This document shows positions 26,644-62,002 of a stretch of DNA of 64,000 nucleotides, piece after piece (within the stretch, counting starts at the first letter, position 1; each line of letters starts with the position of its first letter). The DNA lies in contig CADCBK010000003.1 of the NCBI GenBank assembly GCA_902799665.1, forward strand, positions 7,566-71,565, in the 5' to 3' direction. The DNA is from an uncultured Spirochaetaceae bacterium (lineage in GTDB: Bacteria > Spirochaetota > Spirochaetia > Treponematales > Treponemataceae). Below the pieces are notes generated by a model. That model saw nothing but the letters and a program-made list of their open reading frames with translations, made no database searches and was not told where the DNA came from. Both the position numbers and the translations under genes were made by a program.

Positions 26644-26716
26644 TGGGCCATCTAAGATTTGAACTTAGGACCAAAGGATTATGAGTCCTCTGCTCTAACC
26701 GCTGAGCTAATGGCCC
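26644..26716 (-). tRNA. tRNA with CAT anticodon, most likely tRNA-Ile2
   Basis: GGGCCATTAGCTCAGCGGTTAGAGCAGAGGACTCATAATCCTTTGGTCCTAAGTTCAAATCTTAGATGGCCCA folds as a cloverleaf and resembles Ile2 more than Met. CCA is not encoded. Confidence 0.88.
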
Positions 26717-44264: not shown

Positions 44265-44336
44265 AGGAGTCTAGCGGAATCGAACCGCTGCATAGAGGTT
44301 TTGCAGACCTGTCCCTTACCACTTGGGTAAGACTCC
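44265..44336 (-). tRNA. tRNA-Cys (GCA)
   Basis: GGAGTCTTACCCAAGTGGTAAGGGACAGGTCTGCAAAACCTCTATGCAGCGGTTCGATTCCGCTAGACTCCT; U discriminator. Confidence 0.93.
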
Positions 44337-53490: not shown

Positions 53491-54138
53491 TTAGCGCTCT
53501 AAGTATTTCCATTCAGGAAAGTGCTTTTCACAATTGAAATCGCCGCCGGATTGTTCTGTTCTTTCATCAGAACTTTCTGTTTTTGGGTATATTCTATAAC
53601 CTATACCTGCAGTGCCAATTTTTTCGGTCATTTGAGAATTCAAGACCCATATTGATTCACTATTTGCAAAAGCTCTATAATTAAGCCCATTTTTCACATA
53701 CGGAATACACTTATAAAAACTCTCACAGTTATTTGATGTTTTTGACTCACAACTGAGTTTATAACCTAGGACATTAGAATAATGATGTTCAAACCATCTG
53801 ATTGGAAGATACTTGATAACAGGGTCAACTTCAGTAAGACTCTTCTCAATAGTTGACTTGCTGATGTAAACCCAGTTAACGCCATATTCTGAATCTTTCG
53901 GAATTTCGTGATAACCTGTCAAGTTAACTTTATCAGTAAAATCAACTTTGTGAGTTCCAGAATTGTCTTCCTGATAAACTGTAGTCTTTTTAGGATACTG
54001 CGTTGTTGTAGTAACTGTCGTTTCAGGCTGCGTAGGAGCAGTTGTCGGAAACGTTGTCAACGCAGGATTTCCTGCTGAATTTGAGCAAGACGCAAGAACT
54101 ACTACACAACCAACCAAACCAAAAATAAGTTTCTTCAT
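53491..54138 (-). CDS. Putative lipoprotein
   Basis: MKK-hydrophobic-LASC lipobox, Thr/Pro linker, AGGAGG RBS, AT-rich codon usage. Confidence 0.8.
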   Translation of the reverse strand: MKKLIFGLVGCVVVLASCSNSAGNPALTTFPTTAPTQPETTVTTTTQYPKKTTVYQEDNSGTHKVDFTDKVNLTGYHEIPKDSEYGVNWVYISKSTIEKSLTEVDPVIKYLPIRWFEHHYSNVLGYKLSCESKTSNNCESFYKCIPYVKNGLNYRAFANSESIWVLNSQMTEKIGTAGIGYRIYPKTESSDERTEQSGGDFNCEKHFPEWKYLER

Positions 54139-54161: not shown

Positions 54162-54650
54162 TTAAACGGTTTCTCCAGACCAGAGCTCCGAATCATGCAA
54201 ATATAGTTTTTCATCAGATTCTTTGCCTTTTTGCTGTTTCTGTAATTCAGAAATTTTTTCTTGCCATTTCGTTTTGCTCTCGCCTATTTTTAAAGCTTTT
54301 TTTACGTTCGCGTCCCAGATTAGGGGGTAGTCTTTTGGATTAACGATGTGGCAAATTTTTGAGATGAACGATGTCGGCTTTTTTCCAGAAAATTCTTTTA
54401 CGGAAAAAATGTCGTATTTTCCGTCTTCTATTTTTGAAAGATTGCTTCTGACATATTCTGAAAAATTCGGAAAGTCTTTTGTCTTGATGTTTCTTAAGAC
54501 GCCGCTGCCTCTTCCTACAACGTCATGAAGGACTTTTTCAAAATCATTTTTGTTGTCTTTGTATTGGTCGATTAATTTTGCGGACTCAATTTTCCACAGT
54601 TGCGCTGTTTTTGTGTTGTAGTCCTTTACGCTTTTTTCTACGTCGCTCAT
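54162..54650 (-). CDS. Hypothetical protein with SKxxH..P..P.WD.V motif (HhH/glycosylase-like, tentative)
   Basis: SFISKICHIVNPKDYPLIWDANVKKAL; GAGGAG RBS. Confidence 0.65.
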   Translation of the reverse strand: MSDVEKSVKDYNTKTAQLWKIESAKLIDQYKDNKNDFEKVLHDVVGRGSGVLRNIKTKDFPNFSEYVRSNLSKIEDGKYDIFSVKEFSGKKPTSFISKICHIVNPKDYPLIWDANVKKALKIGESKTKWQEKISELQKQQKGKESDEKLYLHDSELWSGETV

Positions 54651-55620: not shown

Positions 55621-56085
55621 TCAAATCTGTTCCATCACGTTGACCATCTCTATCGCGCTGAGGGCGCAGTCGTAGCCCTTGTTGCCGCTCTTGGCGCCGG
55701 CGCGGTCGATGGCTTGCTCCAAGTTGTCGGTGGTCAAGATTCCGAACAAGACTGGAACGCCTGTGTTGAACGAGGCTTGCGCGACGCCTTTGCTGACTTC
55801 GGCGCAAACGTAATCGTAGTGGCTGGTGCTGCCGCGGATTACCGCTCCAACGCAAATGACCGCGTCGTACTTTTTGCTGGCCGCCATTTTTTGCGCGACG
55901 ACGGGAATCTCAAACGCGCCCGGAACCCAAGCCGCGCTGATGTTGTCTTGCTCGACTCCGTGGCGCACAAGACCGTCAACCGCTCCGTCCAAAAGCTTTT
56001 GAACGATGAACGCGTTAAAGCGCGACGCCACGATTCCAACCTTCATGCCGCTTTTGGCGACTACCTTTCCTTCAATCAATTTCAT
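55621..56085 (-). CDS. ribH: 6,7-dimethyl-8-ribityllumazine synthase
   Basis: [24 protein letters not shown]. Confidence 0.97.
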
Positions 56086-56093
56086 ATAACCTC

Positions 56094-57308
56094 CTAATTA
56101 ACATTGATATGGTCAAAGATGTGGCCCATTTTTTCCTTCTTGGTGCGAAGGTAAAATTTGTCAAACTTTGACGGCGGAATTTCTATCGACACGCGCTCGG
56201 CGACTTTTATTCCAAAGCCGTCAAGCCCGTAAATCTTTTGCGGATTGTTTGTCAAAAGGCGCAGGGACTTTATTCCCAGGTCGCGCAAGATTTGCGCTCC
56301 GATCCAGTATTCGCGCAAGTCGGGGGCAAAGCCCAACTTTAAATTCGCTTCCACAGTGTCGTAGCCGTTTTCTTGCAGCATGTAAGTCTTTAGCTTGTTG
56401 ATCAGTCCGATGCCGCGCCCTTCCTGGCGCATGTAAAGCAAAACGCCCCGGCCTTCTTTTTCTATCGTCTTCATCGCTTGGCGCAGTTGCGGGCCGCAGT
56501 CGCAGCGCTGGCTTCCAAATACGTCGCCTGTCAAACATTCGGAGTGAACGCGGCACAAAACTTTTTCGCCGTCGCCGATGTCGCCTTTTACAAGCGCGAT
56601 GTGGTGCTCGCCGGTAAGGTCGTCGGTGTAACCGTAAATGTCAAAGTCGCCAAACTCGCTTGGGAGCTTTGCCTTTGCTTCCTGAACGACGTGCTTGTCA
56701 TGGACGCGGCAGTAGTCGGCCAGCGCTTTTATCGTGATGTATTTTAGCCCGAACTTTTGCGCGATTTGGTAAACTTTCTCGCCGCGCGCCATTGTTCCGT
56801 CGTCGTCCATAATCTCGCAGCAAACGCCGCATTCCTTAAGGCCGGCCAAGCGGCAAAGGTCAACGGTGGCTTCCGTGTGCCCGGCGCGGACAAGCACTCC
56901 GCCTTTTTTCGCGATAAGGGGAAAGGTGTGGCCGGGCCTTCTAAAATCTTTTGGCGTGGAATCTGGATCGACGCACGCTTGAATCGTTCGCGCACGCTCT
57001 GCGGCTGAGATTCCCGTCGTGGTGGAAACGTGGTCAATCGAAACGGTGAAGGCCGTCTCGTGGTTGTCGGTGTTCTCGGCCACCATCGGGTAAAGGCCAA
57101 GCCGGTTTGCCATGCCTTCGCTGAGCGGGGTGCAAATCAAGCCCTTTGCGTGCGTCGCGATAAAGTTGATGTTCGCTTGCGTCGCGAACTGCGCTGCGCA
57201 AATCATGTCGCCTTCGTTCTCGCGGTTTTCATCGTCGCTTACAAGAATTATTTTTCCTTGCCGCAATTCCTCAAGCGCCTCTTCGATTGTGTTGTATTTT
57301 ATTTCCAT
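56094..57308 (-). CDS. ribBA: Bifunctional DHBP synthase / GTP cyclohydrolase II
   Basis: [39 protein letters not shown]. Confidence 0.97.
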
Positions 57309-57420: not shown

Positions 57421-58101
57421 CTAAAAACCTCGCTCTCTTAAAAATTCTTCTGTTATGGCGGAACTGTCGCTCTCGCCGGAACGGTAGCCGCCGCCGAAAT
57501 TGCCCGCAAGCCCAAGAAGCCGCTGGACATATTTTCCGACGATGTCGTTTTCCAAGTTCACTTTGTCGCCGGCTTTTTTATCTAGCAGCGTTGTCTCCTC
57601 TCCCGTATGCGGAATGACAGAAACTGCGAATCGCCCCGCCTCAAGTTTTGCGACGGTAAGGCTGATTCCGTCAATCGCAATCGAACCTTTCTCTACGATT
57701 AAGTTTAAGACTGAATCGCTCGCGCTGACGCAAACCCAAACGGCGTTTCCTTCGCGCTCTAGCTTTTCGATAGTTCCCGTGCCGTCGATGTGGCCGCTGA
57801 CGATGTGGCCGCCAAAACGTCCGTCCGCAGCCATCGCGCGCTCAAGGTTCACTTGGCTTCCGACGGCAAGGCTTACAAGATTTGAGCGGCGCAAGGTTTC
57901 GGCCATTACGTCCGCGGTAAAGAAGTCCGCGCCCAAGCTTGTCGCGGTAAGGCAAACGCCGTTTACCGCAATACTGTCGCCGACTTTTGTTCCTTGTAAA
58001 ATTTTTTGCGCGCGGATTTTTATTCTGGCTCCCTTGCCGTCCGCCGCTCCCATTTCAAGGCTGGCCACCGCGCCTTTTTCTTCTATTATTCCTGTGAACA
58101 C
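57421..58101 (-). CDS. ribE: Riboflavin synthase (alpha chain)
   Basis: GGAGG RBS plus GTG; FTGIIEE, NGVCLT, GGHIVSGHID. Confidence 0.96.
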   Translation of the reverse strand: MFTGIIEEKGAVASLEMGAADGKGARIKIRAQKILQGTKVGDSIAVNGVCLTATSLGADFFTADVMAETLRRSNLVSLAVGSQVNLERAMAADGRFGGHIVSGHIDGTGTIEKLEREGNAVWVCVSASDSVLNLIVEKGSIAIDGISLTVAKLEAGRFAVSVIPHTGEETTLLDKKAGDKVNLENDIVGKYVQRLLGLAGNFGGGYRSGESDSSAITEEFLRERGF

Positions 58102-58261
58102 TATGTCCTCCATAAAGCGCCGCTGTTCGCGCGAGCCATTTGCGAGCGCGATTGCCCGCTCGCGTAAGCGAGCAAGTGAATGACTCCTTTGCGCAAAACG
58201 GCAACGCCGTAATGTTGCGGCTTATGCGGCAATCCTTCGTTTATGGGCTTGCCATCGTTAT

Positions 58262-59404
58262 TCATTGCCGCTTGTATTCAATCAAAACGTCGCTTCCGAT
58301 TTTACGCGCGTCGATTTGTGCAAGGCTAAAAGCGTCGGCCACTTCCAAAACGCCGCTTCCAGCCACCGGACTGGGGGCGGCGGCCCCGCCAAAAATTTTT
58401 GGCGCCACAAAAGAGTAAACGCGCTGGACAAGACCCGCCTGCAAAAGCGAAAAGTTTAGTTGGCCGCCGCCTTCGACCAATACGCTGTCAAGATTTTGCG
58501 CGCCAAGCTTTTGCATTAAAATCGAAAGGTCCACGCGCTTCGTTCCGCAGCGGATTATTTGAACGCCTTTTTGGGCGAGCGCTTTTTCTTTTTGCAAAAA
58601 GTTTTGGGCGGGGAGGGCGGCCCCTTCTTGGGCTTGCAAGCAATCTGGTTCCGCGCAGGCGACAATCGTTGGAACTTCGGCCGCGGTTTGGACAAGCTGC
58701 GAGTCAAGCGGAAGGCGCAAGGAACTGTCGCAAATTACGCGCGTGGGGTTCCGGCCGCCGGGGATTCGGCAAGTCAAAAGCGGATCGTCGGCGAGTGCCG
58801 TTCCGATTCCTGCCATAATGCAAGAATACTTGTTCCGCAATTGGTGGACAAAGTCGCGCGACTCTTGCGAAGATATCCACTTGGACTTTCCGGCAGCCGT
58901 GGCGATTTTTCCGTCCGCGGTCATCGCGTACTTTAGCGCGACATATGGCGTTCGATTTGTAATGTAATGGAAGAAAATAAAATTGAGCGTGTCGCATTCC
59001 GAGCGCAAAAAGTCTTCCTCAACCTCAACGCCCCGTTCGCGCAAAAACGCGGCGCCCTTTCCGCTTACCAAAGGGTTTGGGTCTCGGCTTCCGACAACTA
59101 CTTTTTTGATTCCGGCCTGGACGATGGCCTCGACGCAAGGCGGCTGCTTTCCTGTGTGGCAGCAGGGTTCCAGCGTGACAAAAATTGTCGCGCCGCTTGG
59201 ATCGTTTCCCCGCTCGCGGCAATCGCGCAAAGCGTCCCGTTCCGCGTGCAAGTCGCCGTACTTGTGGTGCCAGCCTTGGCCTATGATTTGATTTTCTTGG
59301 ACGATGACGGCGCCGACCAGAGGGTTGGGATTCGTTCGGCCTTCGCCTTTTTTTGCGAGCGCGACAGCAAGCCGCATAAAGCGCTCTTTAGAGTCGTTTT
59401 CCAT
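58262..59404 (-). CDS. ribD: Riboflavin deaminase/reductase
   Basis: PNPLVG, HAE, TLEPCCH..PPC, DGKIAT, VEGG. Confidence 0.96.
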   Translation of the reverse strand: MENDSKERFMRLAVALAKKGEGRTNPNPLVGAVIVQENQIIGQGWHHKYGDLHAERDALRDCRERGNDPSGATIFVTLEPCCHTGKQPPCVEAIVQAGIKKVVVGSRDPNPLVSGKGAAFLRERGVEVEEDFLRSECDTLNFIFFHYITNRTPYVALKYAMTADGKIATAAGKSKWISSQESRDFVHQLRNKYSCIMAGIGTALADDPLLTCRIPGGRNPTRVICDSSLRLPLDSQLVQTAAEVPTIVACAEPDCLQAQEGAALPAQNFLQKEKALAQKGVQIIRCGTKRVDLSILMQKLGAQNLDSVLVEGGGQLNFSLLQAGLVQRVYSFVAPKIFGGAAAPSPVAGSGVLEVADAFSLAQIDARKIGSDVLIEYKRQ

Positions 59405-59406
59405 AA

Positions 59407-59526
59407 TACCTTCTTCCATCCAGACTTTACTGTCGGCCGCGGAATCACACCGCGTCATGCTCTGGCAACGCCATCGCTTGCTGGCTATACAGCCGGTGGG
59501 GAATTGCGCCCCGCCTTGAAGTTTAT
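59407..59526 (-). ncRNA. FMN riboswitch (RFN element) with variant core
   Basis: CUUCAAGGCGGGGCGCAAUUCCCCACCGGCUGUAUAGCCAGCAAGC...UGACGCGGUGUGAUUCCGCGGCCGACAGUAAAGUCUGGAUGGAAGAAG, directly 5' of ribD. Confidence 0.92.
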
Positions 59527-59566
59527 GCAATTATTTTAGCGCATAGGGGGAAATTGCGCAAGACGC

Positions 59567-60946
59567 TTACTCCACAAAATATCCGTTCATAAGGCCCTTG
59601 CCCTTGACTTCCACTTGGACGGGGCCTTGCCAGTCAAACTTGTCGCTGGCTTGCTTTTGCGCGGCTTCGGAGACGTGAATCTTCATCGGCTGGCCGGAAC
59701 TTTCCATGCGGCTGGCCACGTTCACCGTGTCGCCCCAAATGTCGTAAATGAATTTTGTCTTTCCAATAACTCCGGCCACAAGCTCTCCGCTGTTTATTCC
59801 CACTCGGATTTGAAGGGGCTTTTCCGCCGTCTTGTTGAACTCTTCCACGTCGCGCAAAAGGCCTTGGGCAAAACGGACCATTTTTTCGACGCCGCCGTTT
59901 TGCGCGTTTTCGTCCAAGCCCGCCGCGGCCATGTAGGAGTCGCCGATCGTTTTTATTTTTTCAACGCCTTCGCGCGCGGCCCGTTCGTCAAAAAGGCTGG
60001 TCAGCTTATTCAGCATTTTTACGGTTTGGTCGGCGGTCATGTCGGAGCTCATTTTTGTAAAGCCCACGATGTCGGTGAACAAAACGGTGGCGTTGGGGTG
60101 CTCCGTCAATTCGCGCGCGACGTCGGCGGGCAAAATGTTCAGCAATAGCCGCTCGACTTTTTGGTTTGCAACCCGCAGTTCCTTTGTGCGCTCGTCAACC
60201 GTTTGCTCCAGCTCCTTTTGGTAGCGGGCGAGCATTTCTATTTCAAGGCGGTGCGCGCGCTCCACCTTTTTGTTCATTTCCTTTAAGTCAAAAATATACA
60301 AAAGAATCGCCATTCCGGCGGAAGAAATTCCCGTTATGTAAAAGCCTTTCATGCGGAACTGAATCGCGCTTGCGGCTATTGGAATCGCGATGAAGAACAA
60401 AAGCGGAAAGGCCGTTTCATGCGGAATCCTTTTAAAGTTCCGCAGAATGCAAATGAATTGCAGCAAAAGCGCGGCGCATGGAAAAATATAGGCCAGCGGG
60501 CGGGCGGGGCCGCGTATGTAATTGTTTCGCGCGTCTATCGTGTAGTAAAGGCCGGTGAACTGAGAAATGATGACCAGTGCGATTTCGGTTAGCAAAAAGA
60601 TTCCAGCGACGTAAAATTCCCAAGGCATCTTTTTGAGCTCGCCTTCGTTTTGGAACAAGTCTTTTAAATAGAAGTTCAAGTTCAAAATCAAAAAGGCCGG
60701 AAAAAAGTAGTCGCCGAATTTTGCGATTTTTGTGATAAAGACCGCCGTTCCGTTCATCATAAAGCTGTATGCGGTAAAGGCAAGCTGCGACGACAAAATG
60801 CCCGTGGCGCTCAGTTCCAAAAAAATTATCGCGGCCTTTCTCCTTCTTGAAAGGTTGTTTGTCCTCAAAGTCAAAAAGGCTGTCAAAAGGCAAATCGCCT
60901 GCAGCGCGATCATCAAGTCATGCTGGTGCCGGATCAAAAAATTCAT
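59567..60946 (-). CDS. Membrane-bound class III adenylate/guanylate cyclase
   Basis: About 7 TM helices; LFTDIVGFT, KTIGDSYM, YDIWGDTVNVASRMES, KGKG. Confidence 0.92.
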   Translation of the reverse strand: MNFLIRHQHDLMIALQAICLLTAFLTLRTNNLSRRRKAAIIFLELSATGILSSQLAFTAYSFMMNGTAVFITKIAKFGDYFFPAFLILNLNFYLKDLFQNEGELKKMPWEFYVAGIFLLTEIALVIISQFTGLYYTIDARNNYIRGPARPLAYIFPCAALLLQFICILRNFKRIPHETAFPLLFFIAIPIAASAIQFRMKGFYITGISSAGMAILLYIFDLKEMNKKVERAHRLEIEMLARYQKELEQTVDERTKELRVANQKVERLLLNILPADVARELTEHPNATVLFTDIVGFTKMSSDMTADQTVKMLNKLTSLFDERAAREGVEKIKTIGDSYMAAAGLDENAQNGGVEKMVRFAQGLLRDVEEFNKTAEKPLQIRVGINSGELVAGVIGKTKFIYDIWGDTVNVASRMESSGQPMKIHVSEAAQKQASDKFDWQGPVQVEVKGKGLMNGYFVE

Positions 60947-61021: not shown

Positions 61022-62002
61022 ATGTCTGTTTTAGAAAAAATCGGAAACTTCTTTGGAAAGTTCATGGCCCTGATTATTTTGGCCGTGGCCGCTCTGGCGC
61101 TTTTTGTTCCGCAGAGTTGTCTTTGGATTCAGCCGTCTTGGATCAACCCGCTTTTGATGCTGGTCATGTTCGGAATGGGACTCACGCTCAAAATCGAAGA
61201 CTTCGCGCTTGTCTTTACCCGCCCCAAGGACATCATCATCGGTTGCGTCGCGCAGTTCACAATCATGCCGCTTTTGGCCTTTGCTTTGGGAAAAATCTTT
61301 GGCCTTGAGGTAGGGCTTTTGGCCGGAGTCATTCTTGTCGGAACTTGTCCCGGCGGAACCGCCAGCAACGTAATCACTTATCTTTCCAAGGGCGACGTCG
61401 CTCTTTCTGTCGGAATGACAAGCGTCAACACTTTGCTCGCTCCGCTTCTCACTCCCGCCATCACTTACTTGCTTTTAAAAGAGAGCGTCCATGTTGACGT
61501 CGTTTCGATGTTCCTTTCAATTGTAAAGGTTGTCATCGTTCCGATTGGCTTGGGCTTTGTCATCAACAAGTTCTTCGGAAAGTTCACGCAAAAAATCGGA
61601 GCGATATTGCCGGCGATTTCTGTAATCGCGATTGCCTTGATTGTCGGAGCGGTTGTCTCGCGCAACTCGCAGAAAATTCTCACGACAGGCGCGATTGTCT
61701 TTGCCGTCGTTATCTTGCACAACCTTTTGGGCTACGCTTGCGGCTTTGGCCTTGGAAAGCTTTTGCGCTTGAACGTCGCAAAGACAAAGGCGCTTTCCAT
61801 CGAAATCGGAATGCAGAATTCAGGACTTGCCACAAGCTTGGCGGGAACGGCCTTCCCGGCTCTTGCGATGGCTACTGTTCCCGGCGCGATCTTTAGCGTT
61901 TGGCACAACTTGTCCGGCGCCGTGCTTGCCAACTTTTACCGCAAATGGGAGGAGAAGGATGAGGCCGCTTCTTCGGAAAACTCAAGCGGCAATGCGCAAT
62001 AA
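61022..62002 (+). CDS. Bile acid:sodium symporter (BASS) family transporter
   Basis: MFGMGLTL, CPGGTASNV, EIGMQNSGLA. Confidence 0.92.
   Translation: MSVLEKIGNFFGKFMALIILAVAALALFVPQSCLWIQPSWINPLLMLVMFGMGLTLKIEDFALVFTRPKDIIIGCVAQFTIMPLLAFALGKIFGLEVGLLAGVILVGTCPGGTASNVITYLSKGDVALSVGMTSVNTLLAPLLTPAITYLLLKESVHVDVVSMFLSIVKVVIVPIGLGFVINKFFGKFTQKIGAILPAISVIAIALIVGAVVSRNSQKILTTGAIVFAVVILHNLLGYACGFGLGKLLRLNVAKTKALSIEIGMQNSGLATSLAGTAFPALAMATVPGAIFSVWHNLSGAVLANFYRKWEEKDEAASSENSSGNAQ

Follow-up and report, generated by a model that had tools for sequence, protein, structure and literature searches.

A covarying A•A pair at positions 10 and 47 of an FMN riboswitch ahead of a spirochaetal riboflavin operon

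The window, a 64,000-nucleotide stretch of DNA from an uncultured Spirochaetaceae bacterium, harbors a full-length FMN riboswitch aptamer in which the guanines at positions 10 and 47 of the Fusobacterium nucleatum aptamer are both replaced by adenine. The element is quite probably a working riboswitch of the standard FMN class, with a covarying A•A swap, FMN still as its ligand and a translational shut-off based on P1. That FMN remains the ligand is, judging from sequence and gene context, the most likely reading, and A10 and A47 would represent one coupled exchange of G•G for A•A rather than independent hits.

A cmscan of the window returned an RF00050 match that spans the full model (positions 1–138) and scores 95.2 bits where the gathering score is 66.2, with an E-value of 1.1e-20. 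This is the single RF00050 match in the genome, a 2.6-Mb metagenome-assembled genome (MAG) of 85 contigs that is 83% complete. The first-pass annotation had placed an FMN riboswitch at 59407–59526; the element itself stands, while its ends and strand required adjustment to 59404–59527 on the minus strand. The six-helix junction (P1, P2, P3, P4, P5 and P6) was recovered entirely in the minimum-free-energy fold of the leader, together with the conserved junction sequences; the fold z-score of the leader is unremarkable at -0.87, so that the fold by itself is no proof. P1 is short, with just four uninterrupted Watson-Crick pairs that pairing of CAUAA with UUAUG could extend; in P3 the pair at model positions 37–58 is U-A in place of G-C, the compensatory pair that had been noticed at first pass. 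In the RF00050 alignment the aptamer is canonical at G11, G12, G32, G33, A48, G62, G84, A85 and A99, as had already been read for all of these but G12 and G33. The flavin contacts (A48, A85 and A99), the phosphate-pocket guanines (G11, G32, G62 and G84) and the Mg2+ position G33 are thus present. The coordinates of the aptamer and of its surroundings are compiled in Table 1.

Table 1. Features of the window discussed in the text, in window coordinates.
Feature	Position	Strand	Basis
FMN riboswitch aptamer RF00050, P1–P6, 124 nt	59404..59527	-	cmscan and minimum-free-energy fold
A in place of F. nucleatum G10 (J1/2; position 12 of the Rfam model)	59516	-	RF00050 alignment
A in place of G47 (J3/4; position 61 of the Rfam model)	59479	-	RF00050 alignment
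GAAGG, P1 3' strand, pairs with CUUC (59518–59521); likely Shine-Dalgarno (inferred)	59409..59413	-
AUG start codon of ribD, on whose A the aptamer ends	59402..59404	-
ribD (deaminase/reductase), 380 aa	58262..59404	-	PF00383, PF01872
ribE (riboflavin synthase)	57421..58113	-	PF00677, two repeats
ribBA (DHBP synthase/GTP cyclohydrolase II)	56094..57308	-	PF00926, PF00925
ribH (lumazine synthase)	55621..56085	-	PF00885
ORFs of 215 and 162 aa downstream of ribH, without Pfam match	53491–54138, 54162–54650	-
459-aa protein with C-terminal adenylate/guanylate cyclase domain	59567–60946	-	PF00211
Sodium/bile-acid symporter family gene, beyond the cyclase gene	61022–62002	+	PF01758
Two tRNA genes	26644–26716, 44265–44336	-	73.1 and 59.7 bits
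Candidate weak promoter-like stretch, TTGCGC-17 nt-TAAAAT	59533..59561	-	by eye

The genes for riboflavin biosynthesis lie directly downstream of the aptamer, and Pfam assignments bear out the complete operon that had been proposed from the reading frames, in the order ribD-ribE-ribBA-ribH; no other operon for riboflavin biosynthesis was found in the window genome. On the upstream side, the gene with the cyclase domain ends 39 nt before the aptamer on the same strand. The candidate promoter noted by eye in this interval would start the transcript at the first bases of the aptamer, and its -35 hexamer matches the consensus at three of six positions; a sigma-70 consensus scan ahead of the aptamer called no promoter.

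To relate the two substitutions to the published aptamer, F. nucleatum (3F2Q) numbers were used throughout, to which 2 is added in the 5' part to obtain the Rfam model position; this mapping draws on the Rfam consensus together with what PMC7573352 and PMC12219259 describe for the junctions. The G and A of the junction that follows P3 are G47 and A48, in agreement with the J3/4 of PMC7573352 (G47-A48-A49) and with Table 3 of PMC12219259. Both G-to-A changes read in the core at first pass were recovered in the RF00050 alignment, where the consensus UCaGGGC becomes UCAAGGC around position 10 and CCGCGA becomes CAGCAA around position 47. An alignment artefact at position 47 is ruled out, as G•G relatives of the same length in the genus align base for base. 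G10 is listed with the guanines that form hydrogen bonds to the phosphate of FMN (PMC6298564, PMC5049679, PMC12550836), and the position is more than 97% conserved as G (PMC6298564); furthermore, G10 and G47 have been reported to form a non-canonical G-G pair (PMC12219259). The window aptamer carries A at this conserved phosphate contact, which is read as the swap of a pair rather than the loss of a feature because its partner at position 47 is replaced with it.

The frequency of these substitutions was estimated with a covariance model built from nine aptamers with the Rfam structure, to which two collections from a one-genome-per-species library were aligned. The first collection was selected solely by the conserved 3' motif CCGACNGUANAGUCNGGAUG, which carries no information on positions 10 and 47. 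Among its 118 aligned riboswitches, position 10 was G in 112, U in one and a gap in five, with no A, and position 47 was G in 108, A in five (~4%) and U in two. A10 was accordingly found in none of the 113 rows aligned at that position, or in about 1/114 if the A•A locus L010, which the 3'-motif scan also matched, is counted. A10 is rare, and G is preferred at position 10; how common A10/A47 is within RF00050 had been raised by the first-pass annotation as a point on which its reading hinged, and the combination is not common. At least one deviation at eleven core positions was present in 19 of 112 ordinary motif-chosen switches (for example, G12A or G62A before ribD), which makes one core change on its own a poor indicator of new specificity.

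The second collection was obtained with a 5'-half pattern carrying A at position 10, which matched at least 120 stretches. This pattern also fixed G11, G12, C13, G32 and G33, and the A10 set is for that reason uninformative on those positions. Among the matches listed, 68 of 120 loci held a real A10 riboswitch at the match; the remaining ones lacked an aptamer there and were treated as chance. The A•A combination was found, among the same listed matches, in Spirochaetota, in several Bacillota families and in one Eggerthellaceae genome (Actinomycetota).

When the two collections were pooled (211 aligned riboswitches, the A10 rows being those among the matches listed), positions 10 and 47 were found in the states GG (131), AA (62), GA (7), AG (5), AT (4), TA (1) and GT (1). 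A47 thus accompanied 62 of 71 A10 (87%) as opposed to 7 of 139 G10 (5%), again with A10 rows from among the matches listed. Columns 10 and 47 are each other's best partner, with a mutual information of 0.61 bit against 0.09–0.11 for the next-best partner, and among all 7626 column pairs, headed by the Watson-Crick pairs of the stems, theirs takes rank 19. The share of A47 was higher with A10 in all ten taxon groups that hold both G10 and A10, for which a two-sided sign test gives ~0.002, the bins being partly overlapping and some of them unclassified. Contrasts on the aptamer tree, of which only five are independent on supported branches, showed position 47 following position 10 in three to four cases and the opposite in zero to one (median p 0.125). 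Comparison of the A•A and G•G sets at the other core columns revealed none that differs. G62 is kept in 57 of 59 aligned A•A members, and G84, A85 and A48 are also kept, none of these having been imposed by the search pattern. Two independent hits in the ligand core, as the changes might be taken at first sight, are thus not what the alignments suggest: the positions covary as G•G or A•A and are reported to pair (PMC12219259), and A10 and A47 are best regarded as one coupled swap. No description of A•A covariation at 10/47 was found in the literature searched, and it constitutes a small new observation about a well-known class.

Two further covarying pairs lie outside the Rfam stems. At aptamer index 44-91 (window 59484/59437) the covariation is nearly exceptionless, with U-A in 102 rows and C-G in 100, while index 16-30 (window 59512/59498) is G-C, A-G or A-U. 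In each case a known tertiary pair or stem extension is the probable explanation.

Within the Treponema-like genus of the window, an FMN riboswitch was found in 29 of 151 genomes. Most of these switches are G•G and have terminator-type platforms before ribE, ribBA or ribD, while three loci are G•A (L007, L252 and L260) and one is A•U (L269). A clade of seven species, consisting of the window, L262, L265, L266, L267, L011 (Treponema sp. UBA4377) and L038 (an uncultured Treponema sp.), shares A•A, the 124-nt aptamer and a ribD AUG at offset 0. Identity to the window across this clade is 93–96% for the aptamer, 73–86% for ribD DNA, 58–78% for third codon positions and 42–58% for the 120 nt upstream of the aptamer, which are not conserved in the clade. 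The differences between the aptamers are confined to the 5' tail, L2, the P4 stem and loop, L5 and the 3' tail. Since the aptamer is more conserved than ribD and the flank, and since A10 and A47 are common to seven species, the aptamer, including both adenines, is under purifying selection. An assembly error behind A10 and A47 is excluded by the identical bases in six further species-level genomes of the genus.

Some variation within the clade and genus was also recorded. The L2 T-loop of the window aptamer (59504–59508, minus strand) reads CGCAA, where six of the seven A•A clade members depart in this way from the consensus UGAAA and L262 retains it; C as first L2 position occurs in 6 of 112 sampled riboswitches. 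The order of the rib operon and the type of switch vary within the genus (L003, L005, L253, L254, L255, L256 and others), with terminator-type switches before ribE or ribBA and platform-less ones that abut ribD or ribBA.

The aptamer ends on the A of the ribD ATG (59404), so that no terminator could fit between aptamer and gene, and none was found there. In the minimum-free-energy fold, UUAUG (59402–59406), which includes the start codon, pairs with CAUAA (59523–59527) and extends P1, and the spacing between GAAGG and AUG is short, at 4 nt. The N-terminus of RibD lies at offset 0 in all seven clade members according to tblastn. The same AUG-abutting layout occurs before ribBA in L248 and L270, which are G•G relatives; the platform-less arrangement is therefore not tied to A•A.

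This anatomy points to an RNA without a separate expression platform, in which the 3' strand of P1 would itself contain the ribosome-binding site, for which GAAGG is the likely candidate. Binding of FMN would lock J6/1 and P1, hide the ribosome-binding site together with the start codon and turn translation off; when FMN is scarce, P1 would open and ribD would be translated. It is most likely, then, that FMN blocks initiation of ribD translation, i.e., that the element is a translational OFF switch. The shortness of P1, the 4-nt spacing and the failure of the scan to call a promoter count against this overall picture. Within such an RNA, positions 10 and 47 would be the partners of one non-canonical purine-purine contact, present as A•A in ~1% of FMN riboswitches, and A•A would preserve the tertiary contact that G•G makes. 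As the swap would keep this contact, the RNA most likely still senses FMN.

The genes that follow A•A switches are of the same kinds as those controlled by canonical FMN-sensing switches. Among the matches listed, the first ORF after an A•A switch was an ECF S component in 42 cases, ribD in 11 and an ABC permease in two; after motif-chosen G•G switches it was an ECF S component in 44 cases, ribD in 26, and otherwise ribB, EamA, TonB-type and other genes. A tblastn search with the window proteins showed ribD operons behind 18 A10 switches among the matches listed. The ECF S components gave only sub-threshold matches to NCBIfam, while the two that were tested in a PDB sequence search are homologues of solved RibU riboflavin importers. 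RibU-type genes follow 71% of the A•A switches among the matches listed as against 42% of the G•G switches, an enrichment that may reflect phylogeny or tuning. Furthermore, in five other genomes where the A•A switch precedes ribD it is, as in the window genome, the sole FMN riboswitch found.

The alternative that best withstands these data, although it is itself unlikely, is that the A•A pair retunes the sensor by weakening the phosphate contact, with weaker FMN binding or less discrimination against riboflavin and a higher threshold for shut-off. Adenine lacks the same donors as G10, and some loss of affinity is therefore plausible given the phosphate contact reported for that guanine (PMC6298564, PMC5049679, PMC12550836). 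The rarity of A10, i.e., the preference for G, and the enrichment of A•A before RibU-type importers are also in keeping with such retuning, as is the presence of A10/A47 in the altered-specificity aptamer Csp (PMC12219259 Table 3) and in Lactobacillaceae RNAs with a variant J6/1. Translational switches moreover work near equilibrium and can tolerate a different KD. The covariation of 10 and 47, however, points to a structural swap, the remaining phosphate and Mg2+ contacts are all retained, and the A•A pair is conserved across seven species. The gene contexts are of the canonical type, the A•A switch being the only flavin sensor in six genomes, and natural G84A aptamers, in which another pocket guanine is changed, bind FMN at normal affinity (PMC12219259). 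Somewhat more speculative still, and rather improbable, is the broader proposal that A10•A47 constitutes a distinct, selectable tuning state, with a looser phosphate pocket and either a raised FMN threshold or some tolerance of riboflavin, and that it would be the permissive background out of which the altered-specificity flavin-like riboswitches, namely the Clostridium subtypes and the Lactobacillaceae RNAs with rebuilt J6/1, evolved.

A change of ligand, by which the RNA would belong to, or be a step towards, the altered-specificity variants and would sense riboflavin, lumichrome or another flavin-like compound, is very unlikely. It draws on a likeness to the Breaker variants, whose pocket has adenines in place of guanines (PMC6298564). 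Those variants, however, have most of the ribityl-phosphate pocket changed and are never linked to biosynthesis genes (PMC6298564), whereas the window RNA differs only at the 10/47 pair and precedes ribDE(BA)H. The riboflavin-shifted specificity suggested by the first-pass annotation is consequently not supported, as the other phosphate-pocket guanines are kept, the gene contexts are canonical and the switch is the sole FMN switch in six genomes. That the element is decaying, or results from a sequencing or assembly error, scarcely deserves credence: the genome is an incomplete, fragmented MAG and the aptamer scores lower than its relatives (95 bits versus 104–112), but A10/A47 recur in six other species, and the aptamer, whose differences fall in loops and tails, has stayed much closer in sequence than either ribD or the flank upstream.

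The reading of a standard FMN riboswitch with a covarying A•A swap has consequences for annotation and beyond. The locus is to be annotated as an ordinary rib operon under FMN control in a spirochaete of the gut type, and it should be kept apart from the altered-specificity variants. That G•G and A•A covary in nature lends comparative support to the 10-47 tertiary contact and suggests that G10, commonly given as an invariant contact to the phosphate, is replaceable if its partner changes too. This replaceability is relevant to the design of orthogonal FMN aptamers and to screens in which variants are flagged by single core substitutions.

With canonical RF00050 members, such as the F. nucleatum impX aptamer (PDB 3F2Q) and the B. 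subtilis ribD leader, the window RNA has in common the six stems, the junctions and the flavin, phosphate and Mg2+ contacts, and it also shares with canonical RFN elements the control of a rib biosynthesis operon. It differs from them in that the contact between J1/2 and J3/4 is A10•A47 instead of G10•G47, in that L2 reads CGCAA instead of UGAAA, and in that it has no terminator or sequestor hairpin, the ribD AUG abutting P1.

The comparison with variant subtypes 1 and 2 is based on signatures taken from the text of PMC6298564 and Table 3 of PMC12219259. In these subtypes most pocket guanines are changed and FMN is rejected, and they are found solely before COG3601, EmrB or NorM transporter genes and never before biosynthesis genes (PMC6298564), which agrees with the first-pass statement that such variants mostly control transporters. 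The likeness lies in the G-to-A changes at phosphate/ribityl contact positions, and the Csp aptamer also combines A10 with A47 (PMC12219259 Table 3). In the window, by contrast, only the 10/47 pair differs where the subtypes have most ribityl-phosphate pocket guanines replaced, and a biosynthesis operon takes the place of the exclusive COG3601/EmrB/NorM association. By these marks of sequence and neighborhood, the window RNA is not one of the Breaker altered-specificity variants.

Other natural FMN-class aptamers likewise have one or two core guanines changed to adenine. Aptamer HO, which has G10 with A47 and A12, does not bind FMN, while the G84A aptamers AS, CB and MS bind FMN normally (PMC12219259). 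HO differs from the window RNA in that its 10/47 pair is mismatched and accompanied by A12, whereas the window pair is a matched A•A with G12. A binding test of a matched A•A aptamer was not found in the literature searched.

A separate set of A10•A47 RNAs was observed in Lactobacillaceae, where eight loci among the matches listed (L021, L035, L064, L065, L080, L092, L105 and L122) also have a rebuilt J6/1. The canonical GGAUGGAAG is replaced by GGUAUAUAG, GGUAGAUAG or GGUAUGCAG, as a result of which A99, the flavin pseudo-pair partner, is U; two of the eight additionally carry G62A. All eight are followed by an ECF S component, that of L021 being a RibU homologue with an E-value of 5e-33 to S. 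aureus RibU in a comparison with solved structures.

Ribosome-binding sites embedded in P1 are known from translational riboswitches of the SAM-II and preQ1 classes, and part of the action of the E. coli ribB FMN switch is on translation. As in riboswitches with such embedded sites, a ligand-stabilized helix would hide the Shine-Dalgarno sequence or AUG of ribD in the window RNA. The window RNA differs from them in that its own P1 and J6/1 would serve as the sequestor with no extra hairpin, a layout that is also that of the G•G switches L248 and L270.
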